IMG/VR virus record: IMGVR_UViG_3300045988_115807
Reading direction: 5' to 3' (one strand)
DNA: 46,701 nt
Source of the DNA: a virus
Lineage: Duplodnaviria > Heunggongvirae > Uroviricota > Caudoviricetes
Shown here piece by piece: positions 3,024 to 40,521 of the stretch. Position 1 is the stretch's first letter, and each line of letters starts with the position of its first letter. The position numbers were made by a program, and so were the translations under genes. A model generated the notes under the pieces. The model saw only the letters and a list, made by a program, of their open reading frames with translations, searched no databases and had not been told where the DNA came from.

Positions 3024-3415
3024 AACATACTGAACTCCGTGCAGCCGTACTGGATGCACTGGAGAAGCATGACACCGGGGCGACGCTTTTTGATGGTCGC
3101 CCCGCTGTTTTTGATGAGGAAGATTTTCCGGCAATTGCCGTTTATCTCACCGGCGCTGAATACACGGGCGAAGAGCTGGACAGCGATACCTGGCAGGCGG
3201 AGCTGCATATTGAAGTTTTCCTGCCTGCTCAGGTGCCGGATTCAGAGCTGGATGCGTGGATGGAGTCCCGGATTTATCCGGTGATGAGCGATATCCCGGC
3301 ACTGTCAGATTTGATCACCAGTATGGTGGCCAGTGGCTATGACTACCGGCGCGACGATGATGCGGGCCTGTGGAGTTCAGCCGATCTGACGTATGTCATT
3401 ACCTATGAAATGTGA
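3020..3415 (+). CDS. U: tail terminator protein U
   Basis: [33 protein letters not shown]... matches lambda U (131 aa); ATGA overlap with Z. Confidence 0.9.
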
Positions 3416-3422
3416 GGACGAT

Positions 3423-4163
3423 ATGCCTGTACCAAATCCTACAATGCCGGTGAAAGGTGCCGGGACCACACTGTGGGTTTATAAGGGGAACGGTGACCCT
3501 TATGCGAACCCGCTTTCAGACGTTGACTGGTCGCGTCTGGCAAAAGTTAAAGACCTGACGCCCGGCGAACTGACCGCTGAGTCCTATGACGACAGCTATC
3601 TCGATGATGAAGATGCGGACTGGACTGCGACCGGGCAGGGGCAGAAATCAGCCGGAGATACCAGCTTCACGCTGGCGTGGATGCCCGGAGAGCAGGGGCA
3701 GCAGGCGCTGCTGGCGTGGTTTAATGAAGGTGATACCCGTGCCTATAAAATCCGCTTCCCGAACGGCACGGTCGATGTGTTCCGTGGCTGGGTCAGCAGT
3801 ATCGGTAAAGCGGTGACGGCGAAGGAAGTGATCACCCGCACGGTGAAGGTCACCAATGTGGGACGCCCGTCGATGGCTGAAGATCGCAGTACGGTGACGG
3901 CAGCAACCGGCATGACGGTAACGCCAGCCAGTGCTTCCGTAGTGAAAGGGCAGAGCACCACGCTGACCGTGGCATTCCAGCCGGAAGGTGTAACCGACAA
4001 GAGCTTCCGTGCGGTGTCTGCGGATAAAACAAAAGCCACCGTGTCGGTCAGTGGTATGACCATCACCGTGAACGGCGTTGCTGCAGGCAAGGTCAACATT
4101 CCGGTTGTATCCGGTAATGGTGAGTTTGCTGCGGTTGCAGAAATTACCGTCACCGCCAGTTAA
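3423..4163 (+). CDS. V: major tail tube protein V
   Basis: [22 protein letters not shown]... matches lambda V (246 aa); internal start of ORF 3393-4163. Confidence 0.95.
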
Positions 4164-5017: not shown

Positions 5018-7589
5018 ACCGGTAGGCGATCTGGTCGTTGATTTAAGTCTGGATGCGGCCAGATTTGACGAGCAGATGGCCAGAGTCAGGCGTCATTTTT
5101 CCGGTACGGAAAGTGATGCGAAAAAAACAGCGGCAGTCGTTGAACAGTCGCTGAGCCGACAGGCGCTGGCTGCACAGAAAGCGGGGATTTCCGTCGGGCA
5201 GTATAAAGCCGCCATGCGTATGCTGCCTGCGCAGTTCACCGACGTGGCCACACAGCTTGCAGGGGGGCAGAATCCGTGGCTGATCCTGCTGCAACAGGGT
5301 GGTCAGGTGAAGGACTCCTTCGGCGGGATGATCCCCATGTTCAGGGGGCTTGCCGGTGCGATCACCCTGCCGATGGTGGGTATCACTTCGCTGGCGGTGG
5401 CGACCGGTGCGCTGGCGTATGCCTGGTATCAGGGTGACTCAACCCTGTCTAATTTCAACAAAACGCTGGTCCTTTCCGGTAATCAGGCGGGACTGACGGC
5501 AGATCGTATGCTGGTCCTGTCCAGAGCAGGGCAGGCGGCAGGGCTGACGTTTAACCAGACCAGCGAGTCACTGACGGCGCTGGTGAATGCCGGTGTGCGT
5601 GGTGGTGAGCAGTTTGAGGCAATCAGCCAGAGTGTGGCGCGTTTCTCCTCTGCATCCGGCGTGGAGGTGGACAAGGTCGCTGAAGCCTTCGGGAAGCTGA
5701 CCACTGACCCGACGTCGGGGTTGACGGCGATGGCGCGCCAGTTCCATAACGTGACGGCGGAACAGATTGCGTATGTTGCTCAGTTGCAGCGTTCCGGCGA
5801 TGGGGCCGGGGCATTGCAGGCGGCGAACGAGGCCGCAACGAAAGGGTTTGATGACCAGACCCGTAAACTGAAAGATAACATGGGTACGCTGGAGACCTGG
5901 GCAGACAAGACTGCACAGGCATTCAAATCCATGTGGGATGCGGTGCTGGATATTGGCCGCCCGGACTCCTCTGCAGATATGCTCGCCAAAGCTGAAAAGG
6001 CTTTTGATGAAGCGGATAAAAAATGGCAGTGGTATCAGAGCCGAAGCCACCGGCGCGGTAAAACTTCAGCATTTCTTGCCAATCTCCGGGGGGCATGGGA
6101 GAAGAGAGAGAATGCGCGACTTGGGCTTTCAGCCGCCACGTTGCAGGCAGATCTTGAAAAGGCCAGTGAGATGGCAGCAAAAGATCGGGCCGAGTCTGAG
6201 GCATCACGGCTGAAATATACCGAAGAGGCGCAGAAGGCTTACGAACGGCTGCAGACGCCGCTGGAGAAATATACCGCCCGTCAGGAAGAACTGAACAAGG
6301 CACTGAAAGACGGGAAAATCCTGCAGGCGGATTACAACACGCTGATGGCGGCGGCGAAAAAGGATTATGAAGCGACGCTGAAAAAGCCGAAACAGTCCGG
6401 CGTGAAGGTGTCTGCGGGCGATCGTCAGGAAGACAGTGCTCATGCTGCCCTGCTGACGCTTCAGGCAGAACTCCGGACGCTGGAGAAGCATGCCGGAGCG
6501 AATGAGAAAATCAGCCAGCAGCGCCGGGATTTGTGGAAGGCGGAGAGTCAGTTCGCGGTACTGGAGGAGGCGGCGCAACGTCGCCAGCTGTCTGCACAGG
6601 AGAAATCCCTGCTGGCGCATAAAGATGAGACGCTGGAGTACAAACGCCAGCTGGCTGCACTTGGCGACAAGGTTACGTATCAGGAGCGCCTGAACGCGCT
6701 GGCGCAGCAGGCGGATAAATTCGCACAGCAGCAACGGGCAAAACGGGCCGCCATTGATGCGAAAAGCCGGGGGCTGACTGACCGGCAGGCAGAACGGGAA
6801 GCCACGGAACAGCGCCTGAAGGAACAGTATGGCGATAATCCGCTGGCGCTGAATAACGTCATGTCAGAGCAGAAAAAGACCTGGGCGGCTGAAGACCAGC
6901 TTCGCGGGAGCTGGATGGCAGGCCTGAAATCCGGCTGGAGTGAGTGGAAAGAGAGCGCCACGGACAGCATGTCGCAGGTAAAAAGTGCAGCCACGCAGAC
7001 CTTTGATGGTATTGCACAGAATATGGCGGCGATGCTGACCGGCAGTGAGCAGAACTGGCGCAGCTTCACCCGCTCCGTGCTGTCCATGATGACAGAAATT
7101 CTGCTTAAGCAGGCAATGGTGGGGATTGTCGGGAGTATCGGCAGCGCCATTGGCGGGGCTGTTGGTGGCGGCGCATCCGCGTCAGGCGGTACAGCCATTC
7201 AGGCCGCTGCGGCGAAATTCCATTTTGCAACCGGAGGATTTACGGGAACCGGCGGCAAATATGAGCCAGCGGGGATTGTTCACCGTGGTGAATTTGTCTT
7301 CACGAAGGAGGCAACCAGCCGGATTGGCGTGGGAAATCTCTACCGGCTGATGCGCGGCTATGCGGAAGGTGGTTATGTGGGCGGTGCCGGAAGTCCGGCG
7401 CAGATGCGGCGGGCGGAAGGCATTAATTTTAATCAGAACAATCACGTGGTGATTCAGAACGACGGTACGAACGGGCAGATAGGTCCGGCTGCTCTGAAGG
7501 CGGTGTATGACATGGCCCGCAAGGGTGCCCGTGATGAAATTCAGACACAGATGCGTGATGGTGGCCTGTTCTCCGGAGGTGGACGATGA
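5010..7589 (+). CDS. H: tail tape measure protein H
   Basis: 859-aa ORF; N-terminus MAEPVGDLVVDLSLDAARFDEQMARVRRHF matches lambda gpH; position between T and M. Confidence 0.95.
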   Translation: MAEPVGDLVVDLSLDAARFDEQMARVRRHFSGTESDAKKTAAVVEQSLSRQALAAQKAGISVGQYKAAMRMLPAQFTDVATQLAGGQNPWLILLQQGGQVKDSFGGMIPMFRGLAGAITLPMVGITSLAVATGALAYAWYQGDSTLSNFNKTLVLSGNQAGLTADRMLVLSRAGQAAGLTFNQTSESLTALVNAGVRGGEQFEAISQSVARFSSASGVEVDKVAEAFGKLTTDPTSGLTAMARQFHNVTAEQIAYVAQLQRSGDGAGALQAANEAATKGFDDQTRKLKDNMGTLETWADKTAQAFKSMWDAVLDIGRPDSSADMLAKAEKAFDEADKKWQWYQSRSHRRGKTSAFLANLRGAWEKRENARLGLSAATLQADLEKASEMAAKDRAESEASRLKYTEEAQKAYERLQTPLEKYTARQEELNKALKDGKILQADYNTLMAAAKKDYEATLKKPKQSGVKVSAGDRQEDSAHAALLTLQAELRTLEKHAGANEKISQQRRDLWKAESQFAVLEEAAQRRQLSAQEKSLLAHKDETLEYKRQLAALGDKVTYQERLNALAQQADKFAQQQRAKRAAIDAKSRGLTDRQAEREATEQRLKEQYGDNPLALNNVMSEQKKTWAAEDQLRGSWMAGLKSGWSEWKESATDSMSQVKSAATQTFDGIAQNMAAMLTGSEQNWRSFTRSVLSMMTEILLKQAMVGIVGSIGSAIGGAVGGGASASGGTAIQAAAAKFHFATGGFTGTGGKYEPAGIVHRGEFVFTKEATSRIGVGNLYRLMRGYAEGGYVGGAGSPAQMRRAEGINFNQNNHVVIQNDGTNGQIGPAALKAVYDMARKGARDEIQTQMRDGGLFSGGGR

Positions 7590-7915
7590 AAACCTTCCGC
7601 TGGAAAGTGAAACCCGGTATGGATGTGGCTTCGGCCCCTTCTGTAAGAAAGGTGCGCTTTGGTGATGGCTATTCCCAGCGAGCGCCTGCCGGGCTGAATG
7701 CCAACCTGAAAACGTACAGCGTGACGCTTTCTGTCCCCCGTTGGGAGGCCACGGTACTGGAGTCGTTTCTGGAAGAGCACGGGGGCTGGAAAGCCTTTCT
7801 GTGGACGCCGCCTTATGAGTGGCGGCAGATAAAGGTGACCTGCGCAAAATGGTCGTCGCGGGTCAGTATGCTGCGTGTTGAGTTCAGCGCAGAGTTTGAA
7901 CAGGTGGTGAACTGA
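7586..7915 (+). CDS. M: tail tip protein M
   Basis: MKTFRWKVKPGMDVASAPSVRKVRFGDGYSQRAPAGLNANLKTYSVTLSVP... matches lambda M (109 aa). Confidence 0.9.
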   Translation: MKTFRWKVKPGMDVASAPSVRKVRFGDGYSQRAPAGLNANLKTYSVTLSVPRWEATVLESFLEEHGGWKAFLWTPPYEWRQIKVTCAKWSSRVSMLRVEFSAEFEQVVN

Positions 7916-18410: not shown

Positions 18411-19376
18411 TTAATTATCAGTAGATTGTTCCTCTAGTAACAACTCAATTCTGCTTAGTATTTCTTTAGATATTTTTCGGCTATCAATTTTTATAGTTAC
18501 AAAATTACCTTTATATCTAGCCGTGATCCCTTCCCCATATTTTTTCTCGTCTTTTGTTTTTTCCTCGTCGCCAACCAGAACAGAGTCAGATAATATTTGT
18601 ATAATCCGTGAAGCTTCTAAATCCTCGCCGTTTTTTTTAATTGCCAGAAGATGATGAGCAGCATTGCTCATGGCAGCCATGTTTTTTTTGTAGACCTTAA
18701 ACAAAGAATCTCCAGCACGAGCTGACAGTTCTCCTGGATGATTGAAGATAGCTAATATATCTTTTGGTAGACCAGCTGTATTAATACAGCGAGTGATAAT
18801 ATTTCTGTCTATATTTTCAGCCTCGGCTAATGCTTTAACGTTACCATCAAAGTCATTTAGCTTGCGTAAGTATCTCTTTCCTCTTTCGTATGCACTAATA
18901 GGCCTATAATCGTTACCAATTTGGGATAACCAATGCATCTGTTCATCGTCGAGATCACCTATTAAGACGCGATAGTCACATCCTGTTAATATCGCTGCTT
19001 TTCTTCTACGTGAGCCGTCAGCGACTTCAACGACTCCAGACACTTTTCTGGCGAAAGCTGGATTTTGTTGTCCAGACGTTAGAAAAGATGGGATTAAATC
19101 GGCTAGAGAGGATTCATTTAATAAATCTTGATCGCGTTCATTACCTAGCCATACCATTGTTGCCATTTCAACTTTATCTGCGGGAATTGTCTCTAACTTA
19201 AAGTTAACATTACGTCCGCATACTGGCAAAGTTATGCTGTTACCGGTTAATGAACTCAGTTGACGTTTTAAATCACCAACCATAGGTGATACGGGCTGAT
19301 GTTCAGGGGCATGATGATTATTACTCATAATGCGATTAATATCTGGAGCATTTTTTAGAAGAGAGCGCTGTTTCAT
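18411..19376 (-). CDS. sopB: partition protein SopB (ParB-like centromere-binding protein)
   Basis: ...ITLPVCGRNVNFKLE...WLGNERDQDLLNE...LIPSFLTSGQQNPAFARKVSGVVEVADGSRRRKAA...GNDYRPISAYERGKRY... closely parallels F-plasmid SopB from memory. Confidence 0.9.
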   Translation of the reverse strand: MKQRSLLKNAPDINRIMSNNHHAPEHQPVSPMVGDLKRQLSSLTGNSITLPVCGRNVNFKLETIPADKVEMATMVWLGNERDQDLLNESSLADLIPSFLTSGQQNPAFARKVSGVVEVADGSRRRKAAILTGCDYRVLIGDLDDEQMHWLSQIGNDYRPISAYERGKRYLRKLNDFDGNVKALAEAENIDRNIITRCINTAGLPKDILAIFNHPGELSARAGDSLFKVYKKNMAAMSNAAHHLLAIKKNGEDLEASRIIQILSDSVLVGDEEKTKDEKKYGEGITARYKGNFVTIKIDSRKISKEILSRIELLLEEQSTDN

Positions 19377-20542
19377 TATTCGTTCTCCCAGCGAGGTTTT
19401 ATTAGATCATCAAAAATTTCTCGGCAAACAGGGTCCCATATAGAAACAGCATTTCTCCATGCATTCAATGTTGAACGTTGGTTTGCTGCTTGTTCAAATA
19501 CTGTTCTCATTTTTATCTGGCCTTTACCTACTTCATCGGTAACGCGTACAACCTGACGTAATACCATTGATCCCCATGTATTTCTTATTTGTTCTTCCAT
19601 CCATCGTGATTGATTCCCTGTAGTGAGACTATATTTAGTCAGAAGTAAGCGAACGGTTGGCTCAAATCCACCTAGGTCAACGCTTTCCAATAGATCGAGA
19701 AGCATTGTGAAAAACTGTAGAACAGAAGCGTAATCAAATAATTCTGCAGGTGTAGCAACAACAATAACGTCAGCGGCACAAACAACGTTAATGGTTCCTG
19801 TACCGAGGTTCGGAGCACTATCTATAACGATAACATCGTAGTTATCCCAAACTGATTCAATAGCTGCGCGCAGCATAAGGTGTGGAGGATGAGGCAATTT
19901 ACCCTGAGCATGATATTGCATGAGATCTGTTTCTATACGATGTAAAGCTAGGCAGCTAGGGATAATGTCTAGCCCAGGCCAACATGTTGGCTTTATAGCA
20001 TATTCAGCGTTATCGCGTTCTCCTAAGTAAAATGGCAGTAAAGTATCCTCGGCATGGATATGTAAATCAGGAACATAACCGTGATACATAGAGGCCGTGC
20101 CTTGAGGATCGTTACCTTCAACCAAAAGAACACGATGACCTTGTAATGCTAACCATTGAGCTTGATGTACCGCAGACGATGTTTTATAAACGCCGCCTTT
20201 GTGTGACATAACGGCAAGCACAACAGGGTTTTTATCTTGTGGTCGTTGGTTTGGGTTGCCAAAAACTGCTCGCATACTGTTGATTTGATCTATGGTATAA
20301 CCAGCACGACGTTCAATTCTTCCTCTCATTTCAAAGTCAGGTGCAGGTAAACGCCCGCTCTTCTCAGCATCTCTAATTGCTTGAGGAGTTACACCAATTA
20401 AATCTGCTACTTCAGTTATACCCCATCGGCGGGTGATACGCCGAGCTTCAGGACTATCATCACCGAATTGAGCGATAGCAATTGCTTGGGTCATTTCTTG
20501 ACCTCTCGTAACACAATCTTGCAATAACTTTTTCAAAGACAT
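19376..20542 (-). CDS. sopA: partition ATPase SopA (ParA, Walker-type)
   Basis: ...AIAIAQFGDDSPEARRITRRW...HKGGVYKTS...LLVEGNDPQGTASMYHGYVPDLHIHAEDTLLPFYLGE...IDSAPNLG... near-colinear with F SopA from memory. Confidence 0.95.
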   Translation of the reverse strand: MSLKKLLQDCVTRGQEMTQAIAIAQFGDDSPEARRITRRWGITEVADLIGVTPQAIRDAEKSGRLPAPDFEMRGRIERRAGYTIDQINSMRAVFGNPNQRPQDKNPVVLAVMSHKGGVYKTSSAVHQAQWLALQGHRVLLVEGNDPQGTASMYHGYVPDLHIHAEDTLLPFYLGERDNAEYAIKPTCWPGLDIIPSCLALHRIETDLMQYHAQGKLPHPPHLMLRAAIESVWDNYDVIVIDSAPNLGTGTINVVCAADVIVVATPAELFDYASVLQFFTMLLDLLESVDLGGFEPTVRLLLTKYSLTTGNQSRWMEEQIRNTWGSMVLRQVVRVTDEVGKGQIKMRTVFEQAANQRSTLNAWRNAVSIWDPVCREIFDDLIKPRWENE

Positions 20543-20825: not shown

Positions 20826-21160
20826 CAATACAAGAACATAAACAGAGAACATAAAAATAAAGTAATGACACAAACACAATAAAGAACATAAATAAAGAAT
20901 TAGAACCAATGCTAAATAAAGCAGTACACAAAATGAGAACATTACACCAAATGAGAACATTAATCAAGAACATAACGAAACATAATTCCCCATTATACGC
21001 GCGTATAATGGGGAATTATGTGCTGATTTTCAGAACAAAGTCAAGGAACAAATTTTAACGTTCCGATATTGTGTTTTTATTTATTATCCGTTATTGTGTT
21101 CTGTTAGTTTGTGGCTAAGTTAACGCGTTATTAGTTATCTTATTCTCAAATTGTGTTACG
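20826..21160. repeat. AT-rich tos-like region: AGAACA(T) direct repeats left of, and inverted TGTTCT/TTGTGTT repeats right of, the telomere palindrome
   Basis: CAAGAACATA, GAGAACATA, AAGAACATAAAT, GAGAACATTA (x2), CAAGAACATAACG on the left; CAGAACAAAG, TATTGTGTT (x2), TGTGTTCTG on the right. Confidence 0.6.
20980..21021. other. telRL-like telomere resolution site (42-bp perfect palindrome, telO core)
   Basis: ACATAATTCCCCATTATACGCGCGTATAATGGGGAATTATGT is perfectly self-complementary; centre between 21000 and 21001; central CCATTATACGCGCGTATAATGG matches my recollection of the N15 telO core; 171 bp upstream of telN. Confidence 0.85.
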
Positions 21161-21191: not shown

Positions 21192-23093
21192 ATGAGCAAA
21201 GTAAAAATCGGTGAATTAATAAACTCACTTGTTAGCGATGTTGAGTCAATAGATAACTCTGACCGTCCTCAAGGGGAGAAAACAAAAAAAATAAAGGCTG
21301 TTGCATTAAAATTTAAAAATGCATTATTTAATGACAAGCGAAAGTTTAGGGGGAAAGGATTAGAAAAAAGAATTACAGCCAACACATTCAATGCCTATAT
21401 GAGCAGGGCCAGAAAACGGTTTGATGATAAACTTCATCATAGCTTTGAAAAAAATATACATCGCCTATCTGAAAAGTATCCTTTATATAATGAGGAGCTA
21501 TTGTCATGGCTTTCTCTACCTGCTGCCGATATTCGCCAGAGAATGTCAGCTTTACAGGCAAAATTAAAATTAATTCTCCCTCTATCAGAAGATTTATCTA
21601 ATATCAGAATTGGCGATAACAAAAGTCATAATAAGTTATTGAAATTATCAAATAAATATAAAGAGTGGCAATTCGCCATTTCTGATTTAACTAGCGATAA
21701 CTGGAAAGATAAGCGCGATTATTTATATAAATTACTACAGCAAGGATCTGCCTTACTTGAGGAGTTGAATCAGCTAAAAGTTAACCATGAGATTCTCTAT
21801 CATCTTCAACTAAGCCCTGCCGAACGTGCATCTATCCAGCAACGATGGGCGGACGTTCTGCACAATAAGAAACGTAACGTGGTGGTCATTGATTACCCTA
21901 AATATATGCAAGCTATTTACGATATTATAAATAGCCCTGCTACATTAAATAATCTAAACACTCGTTCAGGTATGGCTCCTTTGGCATTTGCACTTGCTGC
22001 ATTGTCAGGAAGACGAATGATTGAGATTATGTATCAAGGTACATTTACTGTTTCTGGTAAGTATACCGTTGATTTTTTAGGCCAAGCTAAAAAAAGAACT
22101 TCTGATAATATAACCAGAAAAATATATACATTATGCGAAGCAAAAACATTTGTTTATTTAATAAATGTACTTCGCTCATGCCCAGCAGCATCTGATTTTG
22201 ATGATGTCGTTAAAGGTTATGGAGATAACGACACACGCTCTGAAAACGGACGTATTAATGCCATATTAGCAAAGGCTTTTAACCCGTGGGTTAAATCATT
22301 TTTTAAAGATGACCGCCGTGTTTATAAAGATAGTCGTGCTATTTATGCCCGTATTGCGTATGAAATGTTTTTCCGCGTAGATCCTCGTTGGAAAAACGTA
22401 GATGAAGATGTTTTCTTTATGGAAATTTTAGGCCATGACGATGAAAACACTCAATTACACTATAAGCAATTCAAGCTGGCCAACTTCTCAAAGACATGGA
22501 GGCCAAATACTGGAAACGAAAATACCAGGCTGGAAGCATTGCAGCAGCTTGATGACGAAATGCCTGGATTCGCCAGAGGAGATGCCGGGGTTCGTCTGCA
22601 TAACACAGTTAAGCAGCTGGTAGAGCAGGACCCCTCTATAAAAATCACGAACAGCACTCTAAGAGCGTTCAAATTTAGCCCAACAATGATTAGTCGATAC
22701 CTGGAATTTGCTGCTGATGCTCTGGGGCAATTTGTTGGCGAAAACGGACAATGGCAACTGAAAATAGATACTCCAGAAATCGTTATGCCTGACGAAGAAG
22801 AACTGGAAGCAATACCTGAACTGGCGGATGAATTATCAGAGGATGACGATCTGGATGACGACGAAATTGAGATAGAGGAAGAGGAAGAGGAAGAGGAAGA
22901 TAGCGTAGAAGAACAGCAACCGCCTGCACCTTCTTCGCCTGTATCTAAGCCGGTATTTAAGCCGGTGAGAAATATTGGTGATGGCTCATACGTTGTTGAG
23001 TTTCATTATAATGGCCAGAATTATGCGTGGTCCGGCAGTGCAAACAGCCCCATGTCAGCAATGCAGTTAGCATGGCTGACATATTTCGGTTAA
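21192..23093 (+). CDS. telN: protelomerase TelN (telomere resolvase)
   Basis: 633 aa; MSKVKIGELINSLVSDVESIDNSDRPQGEKTKKIKA...RSGMAPLAFALAALSGRRMIEIM...HDDENTQLHYKQFKLANF... matches N15 TelN from memory; acidic Glu/Asp-rich C-terminal stretch. Confidence 0.95.
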   Translation: MSKVKIGELINSLVSDVESIDNSDRPQGEKTKKIKAVALKFKNALFNDKRKFRGKGLEKRITANTFNAYMSRARKRFDDKLHHSFEKNIHRLSEKYPLYNEELLSWLSLPAADIRQRMSALQAKLKLILPLSEDLSNIRIGDNKSHNKLLKLSNKYKEWQFAISDLTSDNWKDKRDYLYKLLQQGSALLEELNQLKVNHEILYHLQLSPAERASIQQRWADVLHNKKRNVVVIDYPKYMQAIYDIINSPATLNNLNTRSGMAPLAFALAALSGRRMIEIMYQGTFTVSGKYTVDFLGQAKKRTSDNITRKIYTLCEAKTFVYLINVLRSCPAASDFDDVVKGYGDNDTRSENGRINAILAKAFNPWVKSFFKDDRRVYKDSRAIYARIAYEMFFRVDPRWKNVDEDVFFMEILGHDDENTQLHYKQFKLANFSKTWRPNTGNENTRLEALQQLDDEMPGFARGDAGVRLHNTVKQLVEQDPSIKITNSTLRAFKFSPTMISRYLEFAADALGQFVGENGQWQLKIDTPEIVMPDEEELEAIPELADELSEDDDLDDDEIEIEEEEEEEEDSVEEQQPPAPSSPVSKPVFKPVRNIGDGSYVVEFHYNGQNYAWSGSANSPMSAMQLAWLTYFG

Positions 23094-31535: not shown

Positions 31536-31784
31536 ATGAGATTTATTGCTTATAATAACCGCATGAAACCAGAAGAACTTATTCGCCACTTTGGCAGTGT
31601 AGAAAAAGCAGCGGCTGGGGTAGGTGTAACACCCGGTGCTGTTTACCAATGGTTAACCGCTGGAGAGATTCCTTCATTGCGGCAAAGTGATATTGAAGTT
31701 CGTACTGCTTACAAGCTGAAGAGTGACTTTACAACTCGGCGGGTAAAGCAGTCGATTAAGGAGAGCCGTAAGCGTGGAGCTTGA
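31536..31784 (+). CDS. cro: Cro-like HTH regulator
   Basis: Small HTH protein (…GSVEKAAAGVGVTPGAVYQWL…) divergent from cB; true start may be the ATG at 31563 (MKPEEL). Confidence 0.7.
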   Translation: MRFIAYNNRMKPEELIRHFGSVEKAAAGVGVTPGAVYQWLTAGEIPSLRQSDIEVRTAYKLKSDFTTRRVKQSIKESRKRGA

Positions 31785-32484
31785 GTATATACGCAGCTGC
31801 GTATCCACGGCATTGGCTGATATTCATTATCGCCAGCGTGGCATCCTAGAGGTCCAGCTTGAGCAGATGCGTCTAGGCAGATCAGGACGCTTTAACAATA
31901 AACCAGTCCGGTCAATCAGTGTAGGTGATGATAACTCATACGAAGTGTCCGTTCCTGCTGAGCCGGTTAGATTCCACCAGGGGAAAACATTTAAACAATC
32001 ATCAATGTTGCTCACTGATATTGATTTTCAGAGCGCCAGCTGGCGCAGGGCTATTGGTCAGTTGAATAACGAGGAATCAGCCTGGCTTTATTATTGCTAC
32101 GGATGCAAGCCTGATTACAACAATGATGTGATTGTTTGTCAGTGGTTATGGCTTGATTTTCTGGTTGCTCATTCGGGGGGCGGCTTTAAAAAAATGAAGG
32201 CCTCCACGAAAAAAGCCATGCGGAAATTGATTTATTACGCGGCACAGCAGGTTAAATCAGAACTTACGTGTGCTGAGGCAGTTGATGAGAGAGAACAGGA
32301 CAGGCATCTGAGTTTTCTACTGAATATATCTATTGATAGCTGGAGACAAGATTATAAAGAACGCTGGCTTTTAATTAAGTCGCGATGTCTGAGCTTAAAT
32401 CGAACTGCATTATTAAATGCGGCGGAGAAGCGCAGTGAAATCATCAAACGCCATCGGGCAGGAAGTGCCATTCTGCCTTTGTAA
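31774..32484 (+). CDS. putative late-gene antiterminator (Q-like)
   Basis: 236-aa ORF immediately after cro, as in N15 (cB-cro-Q); Cys-containing YYCYGCKPD segment; assignment is by position, not strong sequence recall. Confidence 0.4.
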   Translation: MELEYIRSCVSTALADIHYRQRGILEVQLEQMRLGRSGRFNNKPVRSISVGDDNSYEVSVPAEPVRFHQGKTFKQSSMLLTDIDFQSASWRRAIGQLNNEESAWLYYCYGCKPDYNNDVIVCQWLWLDFLVAHSGGGFKKMKASTKKAMRKLIYYAAQQVKSELTCAEAVDEREQDRHLSFLLNISIDSWRQDYKERWLLIKSRCLSLNRTALLNAAEKRSEIIKRHRAGSAILPL

Positions 32485-36231: not shown

Positions 36232-36519
36232 TCAATAGACGGCATTAATATTAATCGTTGCACCGCATGCTTGGGCATATTTTGATAAAGTTTTCATGCT
36301 TGCCCCTAAAGGATTGCTTTCCAGGCGGCTGATAGCTGACGGGCGCAATCCCATTCGTTCAGCCAGAGCTGACTTCGTTAAACCTGCTCTTTCCCTCATT
36401 TCGTATAACATTTCGACCATCTCCAGCTCTTTATCGGCCTCTTCATATCCTTTGATGGCTTCTGGAGTGTTGAGAAGTTTTTCTTTTACTTCGTTAAACG
36501 GGATGCCTTTCGCTTTCAT
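36232..36519 (-). CDS. HTH (XRE-family) antitoxin, HigA-like
   Basis: ...RERAGLTKSALAERMGLRPSAISRLESN... HTH; start overlaps the toxin stop by 1 nt (TGATG). Confidence 0.7.
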   Translation of the reverse strand: MKAKGIPFNEVKEKLLNTPEAIKGYEEADKELEMVEMLYEMRERAGLTKSALAERMGLRPSAISRLESNPLGASMKTLSKYAQACGATININAVY

Positions 36520-36830
36520 CAGTTCATCTCCTTCAGGCGAGTTCTGGCGATTTCGATAGCCTTCACCGGTGTTTTCTGTGTCTTTTTTACAAATGCATGC
36601 AATAGATAAATTTCGTTACCAGTCGCGTAGGCGTACAGCGTTCTTGCGATGTTTTTATCCCCTACTCGTAGTTCAAAAAGCCCTCCACCTATTACACGGC
36701 TATGGGGCATCTTCAGTTTGTTGCCTTCCTTCTCCAGTCGCTCAATTAATCTGGTCATGCGACCTCGCAAATCATCTGGTAGTTCAAGCAGTTCATCCAG
36801 TGCTGCAGGGTGGGTTATCACGTTAAACAT
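36519..36830 (-). CDS. RelE/ParE-superfamily toxin, HigB/Gp49-like
   Basis: 103 aa; toxin-first operon order with a downstream HTH antitoxin, typical of HigBA / Gp49-like modules. Confidence 0.7.
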   Translation of the reverse strand: MFNVITHPAALDELLELPDDLRGRMTRLIERLEKEGNKLKMPHSRVIGGGLFELRVGDKNIARTLYAYATGNEIYLLHAFVKKTQKTPVKAIEIARTRLKEMN

Positions 36831-37230: not shown

Positions 37231-37458
37231 ATGAATATTAATGAAATTCGTGGAAATATGACTGAAGCGGCCCTGAGTGTGGAATGTGTTATGCGTGGAT
37301 ACCCACGCATTTCCCTGAAAGAGTTAAGCGAAGCCTGTTTTTTGAGTCAAGCTGCCGTTGAATTTATCATCGAACAGATGATCTGTTTTGGGGTTGCAAA
37401 GCGTAGCGGGTCTGGTCGATATTCTTTGACCGATGAATATAAGCAGGCAACTTTCTAA
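37231..37458 (+). CDS. hypothetical protein (75 aa)
   Basis: GAGAGG RBS; ORF followed by a centromere palindrome and a terminator. Confidence 0.5.
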   Translation: MNINEIRGNMTEAALSVECVMRGYPRISLKELSEACFLSQAAVEFIIEQMICFGVAKRSGSGRYSLTDEYKQATF

Positions 37459-37463
37459 AAACT

Positions 37464-37481
37464 GTGCGACCACGGTCGCAC
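37464..37481. repeat. sopC-like centromere palindrome
   Basis: GTGCGACCACGGTCGCAC (extends to CTGTGCGACCACGGTCGCACAG). Confidence 0.65.
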
Positions 37482-37566
37482 AGCACAAAAACGAAAAAGC
37501 TTGGCAAAATTACGGTTTTTAGTTATTGTTTTGTTAAGTTGGGTTTTTTGTACCCAACAGCCAACA

Positions 37567-37592
37567 AGCCGCCTTTATGGCGGTTTTTTTGT
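37567..37592 (+). terminator. rho-independent terminator
   Basis: AGCCGCCTTTATGGCGGTT followed by TTTTTTG. Confidence 0.6.
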
Positions 37593-37725
37593 GCCTGAAA
37601 AGTGGGCGCAGGACAAGTTGCAGCTTGTCCTGCGGTCAACCCATGCCAGAGCTATAGGCTGAACCTAAAGCCCACCCGCGATGCGCATCGCCGGGTTAGC
37701 TTACCCAGGCAAAAAAATAATAGCT

Positions 37726-38802
37726 ATGTTCAAAACCACTAATATTCATGGCGCGCAACTCGTTTGCGCAGATTCTCTGCAATTTATCAAAACCATCCCT
37801 GATAACTCGGTCAATTTGATTGCAACAGACCCACCATACTTCGGCGTAAAGGCTAACGCATGGGATAACCAGTGGGATAGCGATGCTGACTTTTTGGGGT
37901 GGATTGATGAATTTTTGGCAGAATTTTGGCGGATATTGGCCCCTAATGGCAGCCTGTATATGTTTACCGGCTCTCGCCTTGCGTCAAAAATTGAATTATT
38001 AACTCGCGACCGTTTCAATGTTCTGAACCATATCATTTGGGCTAAACCCAGTGGTATGTGGCGCGGTTGTCATAAAGAAAGTTTAAGGGCTTATTTTCCT
38101 GCCACTGAAAGAATATTATTTGCAGAGCATTACGGCGCGTCAGGTTATGCTAAAGGTCAGTCAGGTTATGCTTCAAAATGTGCAGATTTAAGAAAAAATA
38201 TTTTTTCTCCACTAATTGATGCTTTTTCGCTGGCTCGCCGTCAGTTAGATATATCAGCCGCAGACATTAATTCAGCAACAGGAAAGCAGATGTGTTCGCA
38301 CTGGTTTTCTTATTCGCAGTGGCGGCTTCCATCATTAAGTGATTTTAATAAACTATGCGAATTATTTCGCAGGAAGGCAGATTCACTCGGTGTCCCGTGT
38401 CCATATCCTTTTAATGTTGATTATTCAGAACATGAAAAGCGTTATAGCGATCTGAAATTGCGTTATGAGGAAGTAAAGAAGCAGTATGATGATTTGAAGG
38501 CTCAGTATGAAAATTTGCGCCGCCCATTTCATGTTACTGCTGATGTACCTTATACCGATGTATGGGAGTTTCCTCCTGTGCAATATTATCCTGGCAAGCA
38601 CCCATGTGAAAAACCTGCAGCGATGATGGAACATATTATAAAAAGTAGTTCCCGCCCCGGAGATATCGTTGCCGATTTCTTTATGGGATCAGGCTCTACT
38701 ATTAAAGCCGCGCTGAAGTTAGGTCGTCAGGCAATCGGTATTGAGATTGAGGGTGAACGTTATCTTCAGACAGTTGATGAAGTGAAAAAGTTATTTGAGT
38801 AA
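37726..38802 (+). CDS. DNA methyltransferase (DPPY motif; N6-adenine or N4-cytosine, beta-class)
   Basis: LIATDPPYF (motif IV) near the N-terminus and FFMGSGST (motif I) near the C-terminus; start could instead be 37681. Confidence 0.8.
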   Translation: MFKTTNIHGAQLVCADSLQFIKTIPDNSVNLIATDPPYFGVKANAWDNQWDSDADFLGWIDEFLAEFWRILAPNGSLYMFTGSRLASKIELLTRDRFNVLNHIIWAKPSGMWRGCHKESLRAYFPATERILFAEHYGASGYAKGQSGYASKCADLRKNIFSPLIDAFSLARRQLDISAADINSATGKQMCSHWFSYSQWRLPSLSDFNKLCELFRRKADSLGVPCPYPFNVDYSEHEKRYSDLKLRYEEVKKQYDDLKAQYENLRRPFHVTADVPYTDVWEFPPVQYYPGKHPCEKPAAMMEHIIKSSSRPGDIVADFFMGSGSTIKAALKLGRQAIGIEIEGERYLQTVDEVKKLFE

Positions 38803-38897: not shown

Positions 38898-39170
38898 ATG
38901 AAGATGGATGAACGATACAGCAGCGCATCTTATGGTAGTGCTGGTCTTACTGCGTTCTTTGCCAGCCTGTCATTGCAGGATTGGGGCTTCATTATCGGTG
39001 TCGCGTTCAGCATTATCCTCGGTGTACTTACATACCGGCTCAATAAACGCGAGCAGATGAAGCGCACGAAGATATTGCAGGACATATTGGATAAAACTGA
39101 TGCCAATAATATTTCCGCCACGGCGATGGTTATTGGTGAATTGGGAAAGAGAGCACCGAAGGAAATATGA
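38898..39170 (+). CDS. holin (dual-start MKM motif)
   Basis: MKMDERY... dual-start holin/antiholin pattern; hydrophobic segments; immediately upstream of the endolysin. Confidence 0.7.
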
Positions 39171-39667
39171 TGCAGTCATCATTACGCAAAGCTGTCGCAA
39201 CTGCTATTGGTGGCGGGGCTATTGCCATAGCATCTGTGCTCATCTCTGGTCCGAGCGGCAACGATGGTCTGGAAGGTGTGAGACATAACCCCTACAAAGA
39301 CATCGTTGGTGTATGGACTGTATGTTACGGGCATACAGGAAAAGACATTATGCTCGGTAAAACGTATACCGAAGCAGAATGCAAAGCTCTCCTGAATAAA
39401 GACCTTGCTACTGTCGCCAGACAAATTAACCCGTACATCAAAGTCGATATACCGGAAACAACGCGTGGTGCTCTTTACTCGTTCGTTTACAACGTGGGTG
39501 CAGGCAATTTCAGAACATCGACACTTCTTCGCAAAATCAACCAGGGCGATATCAAAGGTGCATGTGATCAACTACGTCGCTGGACATATGCTGGCGGCAA
39601 GCAATGGAAAGGGCTGATGACTCGCCGTGAGATTGAGCGTGAAGTCTGTTTGTGGGGGCAGCAATGA
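39167..39667 (+). CDS. SAR endolysin (T4-type lysozyme, GH24)
   Basis: N-terminal signal-anchor-release-like segment [20 protein letters not shown] followed by lysozyme-like domain (…VCYGHTG…); start overlaps the holin stop. Confidence 0.85.
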
Positions 39668-40131
39668 GCAGAGTAACCGCAATTATTTCCGCACTGGTTA
39701 TCTGCATCATCGTCTGCCTGTCGTGGGCTGTTAATCATTACCGTGATAACGCCATCGCCTACAAAGAACAGCGTGATAAAAAAGTCAGTGAGCTGAAGCA
39801 GGCGACCGCCACCATCGCTGACATGCAGCAGCGTCAGCGTGATGTTGCTGCGCTCGATGCAAAATACACGAAGGAGTTGGCTGATGCGAAAGCTGAAAAT
39901 GATGCTCTTCGGCGCAAGCTTGATAATGGTGGTCGGGTGCTCGTCAAAGGAAAATGCTCTGTGCCATCCTCAGCCGAAACCTCCAGCGCCTCCGGCATGG
40001 GCAATGATGCCACCGTCGAACTCTCTCCAGTTGCTGGACGAAACGTTCTCGGTATCCGGGACGGAATCATCAGAGACCAGACAGCACTGAGAACGCTTCA
40101 GGAATACATCAAGACGCAATGCCCGAATTAA
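39664..40131 (+). CDS. i-spanin Rz
   Basis: [24 protein letters not shown]... N-terminal TM anchor followed by coiled-coil; position after endolysin. Confidence 0.8.
39884..40090 (+). CDS. o-spanin Rz1 (lipoprotein embedded in the +1 frame of Rz)
   Basis: [22 protein letters not shown]... lipobox VVGC followed by Pro-rich [16 protein letters not shown], like lambda Rz1. Confidence 0.7.
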
Positions 40132-40172: not shown

Positions 40173-40484
40173 ATGAAAATTTATATTGCCGGGCCAATGA
40201 CTGGATATGAGAACTTTAATCGTGACGCCTTTAATAAAGAGGCAGATCGTTTGTCACGACATGGTCACTCTGTCTTGAATCCAGCCACTTTGCCTAATGG
40301 TCTGACACAACGTGAATACATGGATATTTGCTTTGCAATGCTTCGTTGTGCTGATGCTATTTTGATGCTTCCTGGCTGGAAAGCGTCTGCTGGAGCAACT
40401 GCTGAGTATCATTACGCATACAAGATGGAGATGCCGGTATTCACTACGCTGAATTACCCGCCAGCTTGTTCCTCTGTAGCATAA
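40173..40484 (+). CDS. DUF4406 / nucleoside 2-deoxyribosyltransferase-like protein
   Basis: MKIYIAGPMTGYENFNRDAFNKEADRLSRHGHSVLNPA... N-terminal IYIAGPMTG motif is characteristic of this Rossmann-like family. Confidence 0.65.
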   Translation: MKIYIAGPMTGYENFNRDAFNKEADRLSRHGHSVLNPATLPNGLTQREYMDICFAMLRCADAILMLPGWKASAGATAEYHYAYKMEMPVFTTLNYPPACSSVA

Positions 40485-40503: not shown

Positions 40504-40521
40504 GTGCGACCGTGGTCGCAC
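40504..40521. repeat. sopC-like centromere palindrome
   Basis: GTGCGACCGTGGTCGCAC. Confidence 0.65.

Follow-up and report, generated by a model that had tools for sequence, protein, structure and literature searches.

M.EcoGII, encoded by a prophage of E. coli O104:H4 C227-11, is a non-specific adenine methyltransferase that is not expressed in its lysogen, is deleterious when expressed constitutively, and both binds RNA and methylates it in vitro (Murray et al. 2018, PMC5778455). It carries a target-recognition domain (TRD) built as a four-helix bundle, along with a charged linker, the latter lacking in the nearest site-specific relative reported for it, M.PflMI (27% identical to M.EcoGII), and Anc284/SUPREM, a reconstructed ancestor, is experimentally largely sequence-independent (PMC11551740). 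Here, we analyze a methylase gene of this type at positions 37726 to 38802 of a 46,701-nucleotide (nt) stretch of viral DNA (Caudoviricetes; IMG/VR record IMGVR_UViG_3300045988_115807), referred to below as the window, together with a conserved structured element of ~115 nt that lies directly 5' of the gene. Taken as a whole, the locus is best explained as encoding a late, Q-dependent, M.EcoGII-type anti-restriction methylase, a reading that we consider probable. The methylase alone is ordinary, being a member of a known, characterized family and the ortholog of gene 52 of N15, a phage that was reportedly described, along with this gene, by Ravin et al. in 2000. The context, including the element, is the more interesting part, and the initial annotation of the window had missed both the element and a SopB site in the 5' region.

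The methylase gene and its catalytic and recognition regions are as follows.

37726-38802, plus strand: coding sequence of a DNA adenine methyltransferase (MTase) of 358 amino acids (aa), M.EcoGII family, N15 gene 52 ortholog
37828-37839, plus strand: catalytic motif IV, DPPY (residues 35-38), aligned to the DPPY of M.EcoGII and M.RsrI
38167-38514, plus strand: central helical TRD and charged helical linker (residues ~148-263), placed from the helices of an AlphaFold2 (AF2) model
38680-38694, plus strand: S-adenosylmethionine-binding motif I, F-M-G-S-G (residues 319-323)

The protein is 56% identical to M.EcoGII over residues 1-357 (358 and 349 aa, respectively; E = 1e-143), an alignment that includes the TRD and the linker; the M.EcoGII query was machine-read from Supplementary Table S1 of PMC11551740. 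Identity is 61% to Anc284/SUPREM and 82% to N15 gp52. Judged by sequence, it is a full-length member of the M.EcoGII family and the ortholog of N15 gene 52. Because it is bracketed by M.EcoGII and Anc284/SUPREM, TRD and linker included, its activity is probably context-free N6-adenine methylation (m6A). The target specificity, which the initial annotation had called unknown, can thus be narrowed by this comparison to a family in which non-specific m6A is the likely outcome. The likeness to M.EcoGII extends to the beta class, a length of ~350 aa, the domain order, and the status of a prophage-borne orphan. The two differ at 44% of residues and in that the activity of the window enzyme is predicted, that its replicon is a linear plasmid-prophage, and that a SopB site flanks its promoter.

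The assignment as a beta-class DPPY methyltransferase stands. Pfam PF01555 (N6_N4_Mtase) recognizes the protein at 159.7 bits (E = 1.3e-46), well over the curated cut-off of 26.7, and DPPY and FMGSG are invariant across 30 homologs, so the catalytic motifs are retained. Motif IV precedes the TRD and motif I, which is the order of the beta class and not the alpha-class (Dam-type) order, in which motif I precedes motif IV. Hia5 and Hin1523 were considered as relatives and excluded, being Dam-like alpha-class enzymes. The open reading frame (ORF) spans 37681 to 38802 on the plus strand, and the start supported by homologs is the ATG at 37726 (MFKTT...), from which M.EcoGII, the N15 protein, and 30 database homologs all align. 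An in-frame start at 37681 (MRIAGLAYPG..., 15 codons) was rejected as not coding, with stop codons in the relatives L022 and L023; this upstream extension is conserved because helix P4 of the structured element overlaps it. In the N15 record (NC_001901, 11388-12476; locus L002), the annotated gene 52 begins at an internal Met and spans 284 aa, without DPPY, but the frame stays open for 78 codons further upstream, and the full product of 362 aa includes DPPY. Within the methylase gene, the ORFs of the other strand are short and unsupported.

The AF2 model (predicted local distance difference test score, 82.8 on average) shows a split Rossmann-type catalytic domain with a central all-helical insert, whose helices span residues 148-174, 178-185, 204-221, and 233-263. 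An M.EcoGII-type helical-bundle TRD (148-221) and a long charged linker (233-263) are thus both predicted, the latter as a 30-residue charged helix (EHEKRYSDLKLRYEEVKKQYDDLKAQYENLRR). The top Foldseek matches of the model are CcrM, M.BceJIV, MboIIA, and RsrI (probability 1.00). All of the solved beta-class relatives found are site specific, the modeled TRD resembles a helix-turn-helix (HTH), and the best NCBIfam model is that of the site-specific YhdJ family, at 118 bits, far below its cut-off of 292. These points favor a sequence-specific orphan methylase with a Dam- or CcrM-like role, expressed in the lysogen for epigenetic control or for protection against a single restriction system. However, the solved site-specific enzymes align to the methylase over its two catalytic halves only, whereas M.EcoGII aligns over the whole protein, with TRD and linker, and the gene lies behind an intrinsic terminator in a late unit. 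We therefore regard a site-specific lysogen methylase as unlikely. The same position makes a gene-regulatory role in the lysogen unlikely, so that, of the two roles first proposed, protection against host restriction is the better supported.

The late unit is defined by the following features.

31774-32484, plus strand: Q antiterminator gene (PF06323, E = 2e-84), the presumed activator of read-through into the methylase
37462-37483, no strand assigned: 22-bp palindrome ctgtGCGACCACGGTCGCacag, the counterpart of N15 IR3 and thus a SopB centromere site, with the same site in the same place in N15
37501-37529, plus strand: putative Q-dependent late promoter (-35 TTGGCA, 17-bp spacer, -10 TATTGT), from a promoter scan
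37566-37590, plus strand: intrinsic terminator, tR'-like (GCCGCC-TTTAT-GGCGG followed by T7), from a terminator scan

Between the homolog of N15 gp51 and the methylase, the order is palindrome, sigma-70-type promoter, and terminator, the last ~40 nt after the promoter. The N15 record (NC_001901) annotates homologous -35 and -10 sequences and a stem-loop terminator, and the promoter-terminator layout and the initially transcribed TTTTTCTAAGTTGGG are conserved in 17 loci, the methylases of which are 60-100% identical. Because a promoter with an immediate terminator precedes lysis and packaging genes and the phage also carries a Q gene, the unit is taken to be late and Q dependent. By analogy, the promoter-terminator unit and the Q gene would form an arrangement of the lambda PR'-tR' type with the methylase as its first gene. 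In lambda, too, a promoter and then a terminator stand ahead of the lysis and packaging genes, and a Q-family gene is present. Unlike in lambda, the methylase and the ~115-nt element are placed between the terminator and the holin, and a partition-protein site abuts the -35 sequence.

Under the proposed mechanism, the gene would be off behind the terminator until Q makes RNA polymerase terminator resistant; the methylase would then be transcribed together with the lysis and packaging genes. Adenines of the progeny DNA would be methylated just before packaging, with little or no sequence preference, and, once released, the genomes would be protected from many Type I, II, and III restriction systems on entering a new host, a job equivalent to that of Mom in phage Mu. 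In the lysogen, the gene would be silent, mainly by virtue of the upstream terminator, and such silencing would be needed because uncontrolled non-specific methylation is harmful. The adjacent SopB site, the missing Shine-Dalgarno sequence, and the leader element (most likely as an antisense RNA) are possible additional silencers. The methylase of PY54 can be disrupted by insertion, the mutants still lysing and lysogenizing (PMC10612081), which fits an accessory anti-restriction gene. A methylome comparison of lysogens and non-lysogens, which the initial annotation had offered as a check, would be expected to come out flat without refuting the function, because M.EcoGII is itself silent in its lysogen (PMC5778455).

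Several points weigh against this explanation. The labels “late” and “Q-dependent” for the promoter are given by analogy. Its -10 and -35 hexamers agree at only 9 of 12 positions, a level of agreement that occurs just as often in shuffled sequence. At 56% identity to M.EcoGII, the specificity could differ, and the methylation of RNA by M.EcoGII in vitro means that protection of DNA may not be the sole role. Furthermore, the start codon has no Shine-Dalgarno sequence (37700-37725 holds an A-rich tract instead). The Shine-Dalgarno sequence is likewise missing in every class of relative, including those with Mom or C5-MTase genes, which suggests non-canonical or deliberately weak initiation of translation.

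The SopB site has a 14-bp core, GCGACCACGGTCGC, that occurs five times in the window (30253, 32696, 37466, 40506, and 40726), against 0.29 expected, and four times in N15. N15 IR3 belongs to a set of four SopB centromere sites that have been used in experiments (PMC7205306, Table 4). Where relatives differ in partition specificity, the palindrome is altered (TGGGACCACGGTCCCA and GGGGCCATGGCCCC) and its place beside the -35 sequence is kept. SopB bound beside the late promoter may contribute to silencing. A non-coding spacer of 206 bp, bounded by the cores at 40506 and 40726, takes the exact place of the second methylase gene of N15, the C5 methylase gene 58; the window lacks gene 58, possibly via recombination between copies of the inverted repeat.

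Mu Mom/Com and the Hia5/Hin1523 methylases of Mu-like prophages are late and host toxic, and they protect phage DNA by broad adenine modification, as is proposed for the window methylase. Mom has an acyltransferase fold, unlike the window methylase. Hia5 is Dam related (alpha class) and not homologous to it (PMC3299994). The window has no com gene, and no Com zinc-ribbon ORF was found between 37459 and 37725. The com-mom order of Mu is paralleled in relatives, several of them uncultivated, in which a Com-like zinc-ribbon gene lies 5' of an M.EcoGII-like methylase (L033, L034, L067, L075, and Aeromonas phage phiARM81ld, the last with the order Com-like gene, MTase, holin). In SfV, the order is Q, terminator, orf47, element, MTase (orf48, 80% identical to M.EcoGII), and S-R-Rz; close M.EcoGII relatives such as orf48 lie between Q and the lysis genes, as in the window. 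N15 gene 52 occupies the same slot as the window gene, with a gp51 homolog on one side and a holin on the other, and its upstream region shares IR3, promoter, terminator, and leader with the window.

The lysis cassette (38898-40131, plus strand) lies directly 3' of the methylase, within one transcription unit, which bears out the placement of the gene just upstream of it.

38898-39170, plus strand: holin-like gene
39167-39667, plus strand: phage lysozyme (endolysin) gene (Pfam E = 5e-48)
39652-40131, plus strand: Rz gene (Pfam E = 6.5e-31)

The description of the methylase as an orphan without a nuclease partner also holds: no restriction nuclease adjoins it in the window, and PADLOC returned only MTase models, on the methylase itself, and nothing on its neighbors. 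The best PADLOC model is a Type II MTase (E = 1.6e-118), and a toxin-antitoxin pair lies nearby (36232-36830), as might be expected if the methylase were the surviving half of a degraded restriction-modification or defense system serving superinfection exclusion. However, no nuclease gene or remnant stands beside the methylase here or in N15, SfV, or phiARM81ld, and the position as first late gene ahead of the lysis cassette is kept across different phage types. Descent from a degraded system is therefore very improbable.

From the terminator to the ATG, a stretch of ~130 nt is conserved and folds well (plus strand, z = -4.1), and an alignment of divergent loci reveals a multi-helix structure with many compensatory changes.

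37593-37710, strand not settled, with the minus strand favored by pairing statistics: conserved structured element of ~115 nt, helices P0 to P4
37602-37607 with 37670-37675: helix P1
37608-37633: helix P2
37634-37665: helix P3
37676-37695: helix P4

Among 24 distinct sequences, both sides change in 34 of the 39 pairs. The covariation score is 0.483, compared with 0.142 in shuffles; it was reached by 0 of 500 shuffles and approached by no slid register. Paired cells amount to 84.3%, against 64.1% in the shuffles. The P0 pairing (GCCUG/CAGGC) was tried as a general feature and rejected, since it is present in classes A and B only. Rfam 15 covariance models gave no significant match on either strand of the window and five other loci, with only chance matches around the terminator (AgrB, RNAI, and ctRNA) at E <= 10. 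Nor did the searchable literature mention the element sequence or an antisense RNA at mom or methylase genes.

A covariance model places the element directly 5' of the methylase (or of the com-methylase pair) in all locus classes but one, an AT-rich group whose loci lack it and have a plain terminator and a ribosome site. In a pattern scan that was independent of the methylase, 114 sites were found, 83 of which have an M.EcoGII-like gene 3' at a fixed distance; of the other 31, 14 look genuine and 17 look like chance matches in unrelated sequence. The genuine copies without an M.EcoGII-like gene precede a Mom-family gene (PF25680, E = 7e-71) or a C5-MTase (PF00145, E = 1.5e-41), and in three loci the element stands directly before a holin gene. 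Given these three holin-only loci, the link between element and modification gene is strong but not absolute. The element was also considered as a part of the late terminator; this was rejected, since approximately 35 loci have the same late terminator pattern but no modification gene, and the element is missing from them. A scan of a genome collection gave at least six true copies among the matches listed, with chance matches dominant, and a blastn search of the Mom-type element against phage records gave no match. The SfV-type copy occurs in 1,057 of 5,426 complete E. coli genomes (~20%), where no RNA feature is annotated for it. Further copies of the element are found at the following positions.

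L184, 2357-2506: element copy
L186, 2196-2346: element copy
L224, ~7553-7680: element copy, in a Mom-carrying phage
L187, ~3307-3430: element copy, C5-MTase version

In the C5-MTase version (L187, ~3410-3435) and the Mom version (L224, ~7655-7680), a LexA-box-like sequence (TACTGTATAAATGACCAGTA and TACTGTATATATGACC, respectively) sits between the element and the start codon and overlaps a TATAAA or TATATA hexamer resembling a -10 sequence; these versions may be under SOS control. A tRNA gene (L224, 7427-7492; Rfam, 36 bits) lies ~60 nt 5' of the element in the Mom-carrying phage, so that the element falls within what is a typical late-leader region of lambdoid phages.

Pairing statistics favor the minus strand as the one from which the element acts. 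On the plus strand, A.C and C.A oppositions number 100 in paired columns, against 16 G.U pairs, and an A.C opposition is a G.U wobble on the minus strand. In the same columns, 93.5% of the cells are canonical on the minus strand versus 84.3% on the plus strand; for helix P3, the values are 93.8% versus 72.1%. In 96 of 102 instances, the minus strand has the lower minimum free energy, and shuffle-normalized z-scores are -3.3 for the minus strand and -2.3 for the plus strand. One feature is a candidate promoter element for a minus-strand transcript.

37698-37703, minus strand: candidate antisense -10, hexamer TAAGCT (AGCTTA on the plus strand)

The sequence TA(G/A)(G/A)CT occurs at a fixed distance from P4 in 111 of 111 unique instances, and TGn precedes the hexamer in 76 of the 111, resembling an extended -10, though not in the window copy. 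An antisense RNA that damps leaky late transcripts is, by a small margin of confidence over even, the more likely reading, with a cis-acting leader on the plus strand as its main rival. Against an antisense RNA, minus-strand -35 matches are barely above those in shuffles, and the U-tract after P1 is only 3 to 5 nt, which makes a weak intrinsic terminator on the minus strand; both candidates were dropped for these reasons. Furthermore, the linkers are A-rich on the plus strand, the distance from the element to the start codon is fixed, and no class has a Shine-Dalgarno sequence.

The rival is a structured 5' untranslated region on the plus strand that governs translation or stability of the modification gene, either as an autoregulatory site, in which the A.C mismatches would provide easily flipped adenines, or as a standby site that replaces the Shine-Dalgarno sequence. 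This could account for the constant orientation, for the start codon of whatever gene follows lying 22 to 25 nt from the hexamer, for the A-richness of the unpaired linkers, and for the lack of a convincing antisense -35 or terminator. The plus-strand fold, as noted, still has a z-score of -4.1, M.EcoGII binds and methylates RNA (PMC5778455), and relatives of class D have a plus-strand hairpin with a GAAA loop over the com ribosome site. However, the excess of A.C oppositions, the poor plus-strand pairing of P3, and the lower free energies and z-scores of the minus strand all speak against a cis leader, and autoregulation by one enzyme family would not be general, since Mom, C5-MTase, and holin genes also have the element in front of them. 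We consider a plus-strand leader rather unlikely.

If transcribed from the minus strand, the element would resemble the phage cis-antisense RNAs lambda OOP, lambda paQ, and P22 Sar in being a short structured RNA able to pair with the leader of a gene whose silence in lysogens is required. It differs from them in having no sequence or Rfam relationship to any of the three, and its antisense promoter and 3' end are putative. In its widest form, the proposal is that the element is an undescribed RNA gene or regulatory RNA, most likely a lysogen antisense RNA of ~100 nt, that acts as a control module common to three unrelated families of host-toxic DNA-modification genes (those for Mom, C5-MTase, and beta-class m6A MTase) carried by temperate phages of Enterobacterales, Vibrio, Aeromonas, and relatives. 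We put this forward tentatively, at slightly less than even confidence.

On the 5' side of the methylase are two small proteins without a known function, homologs of N15 gp50 and gp51 (PHROG 4830 and 331). The gp51 homolog (37231-37458, 75 aa, PHROG 331) has weak winged-helix matches, and small proteins similar to it are found just 5' of the element or the methylase in other classes; weak similarity to it is also seen in SfV orf47 (28% identity, E = 8e-4). A role as regulator or syntenic partner is possible for the gp51 homolog. A Gp49/HigB-like toxin gene and an HTH antitoxin gene, homologs of N15 genes 48 and 49, make up the pair at 36232-36830, on the minus strand and transcribed against the direction of the late genes. 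After the lysis cassette comes a gene resembling DUF4406 and nucleoside 2-deoxyribosyltransferases (40173-40484), a homolog of N15 gp57.

The window is an N15-like linear plasmid-prophage (Ravinvirus). It has head, tail, and terminase genes of the lambda-like kind and also codes for a CI-like repressor and a large RepA, along with the partition and telomere genes below; a tRNA scan of the window found none.

18411-20542: SopB and SopA genes
21192-23093: protelomerase (TelN) gene

At 20980-21021, the protelomerase gene is preceded at a distance of ~170 bp by a perfect 42-bp palindrome, presumably the site of telomere resolution (telRL core). In a BLAST search with the whole window, identity to Escherichia phage YDC107_1 (CP025712.1, genus Ravinvirus), the closest phage with a name, was 94-100%; the methylase region is 100% identical and other parts are 94-98% identical. 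The window is nevertheless not CP025712.1 itself, which was ruled out by the 94-98% identity elsewhere and by an inverted duplication of ~20 kb found only in CP025712.1. That duplication (L001, 26776-46701; 19.9 kb, 99.9% identical, with two protelomerase copies) has no counterpart in the window and looks like assembly read-through of a hairpin telomere. The methylase region has 16 matches among 5,426 complete E. coli genomes, all 16 on plasmids of 36 to 75 kb and none on a chromosome.

These results add an N15-type phage-plasmid member to the M.EcoGII family, the enzymes of which serve in chromatin and RNA footprinting, and they support the idea that phages commonly use context-free adenine methylation as a late-gene means of anti-restriction, in parallel with Mu Mom. 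In methylomes of lysogens, such genes appear inactive, and virion DNA is the proper material on which to test them. The importance of the methylase itself is modest, and that of the element could be greater. As a functional RNA, if it is one, the element would be a very widespread unannotated regulator, one control for three unrelated DNA-modification enzymes, and, if this is true, it would offer a handle on how temperate phages silence lethal modification genes and on how such genes can be expressed safely.

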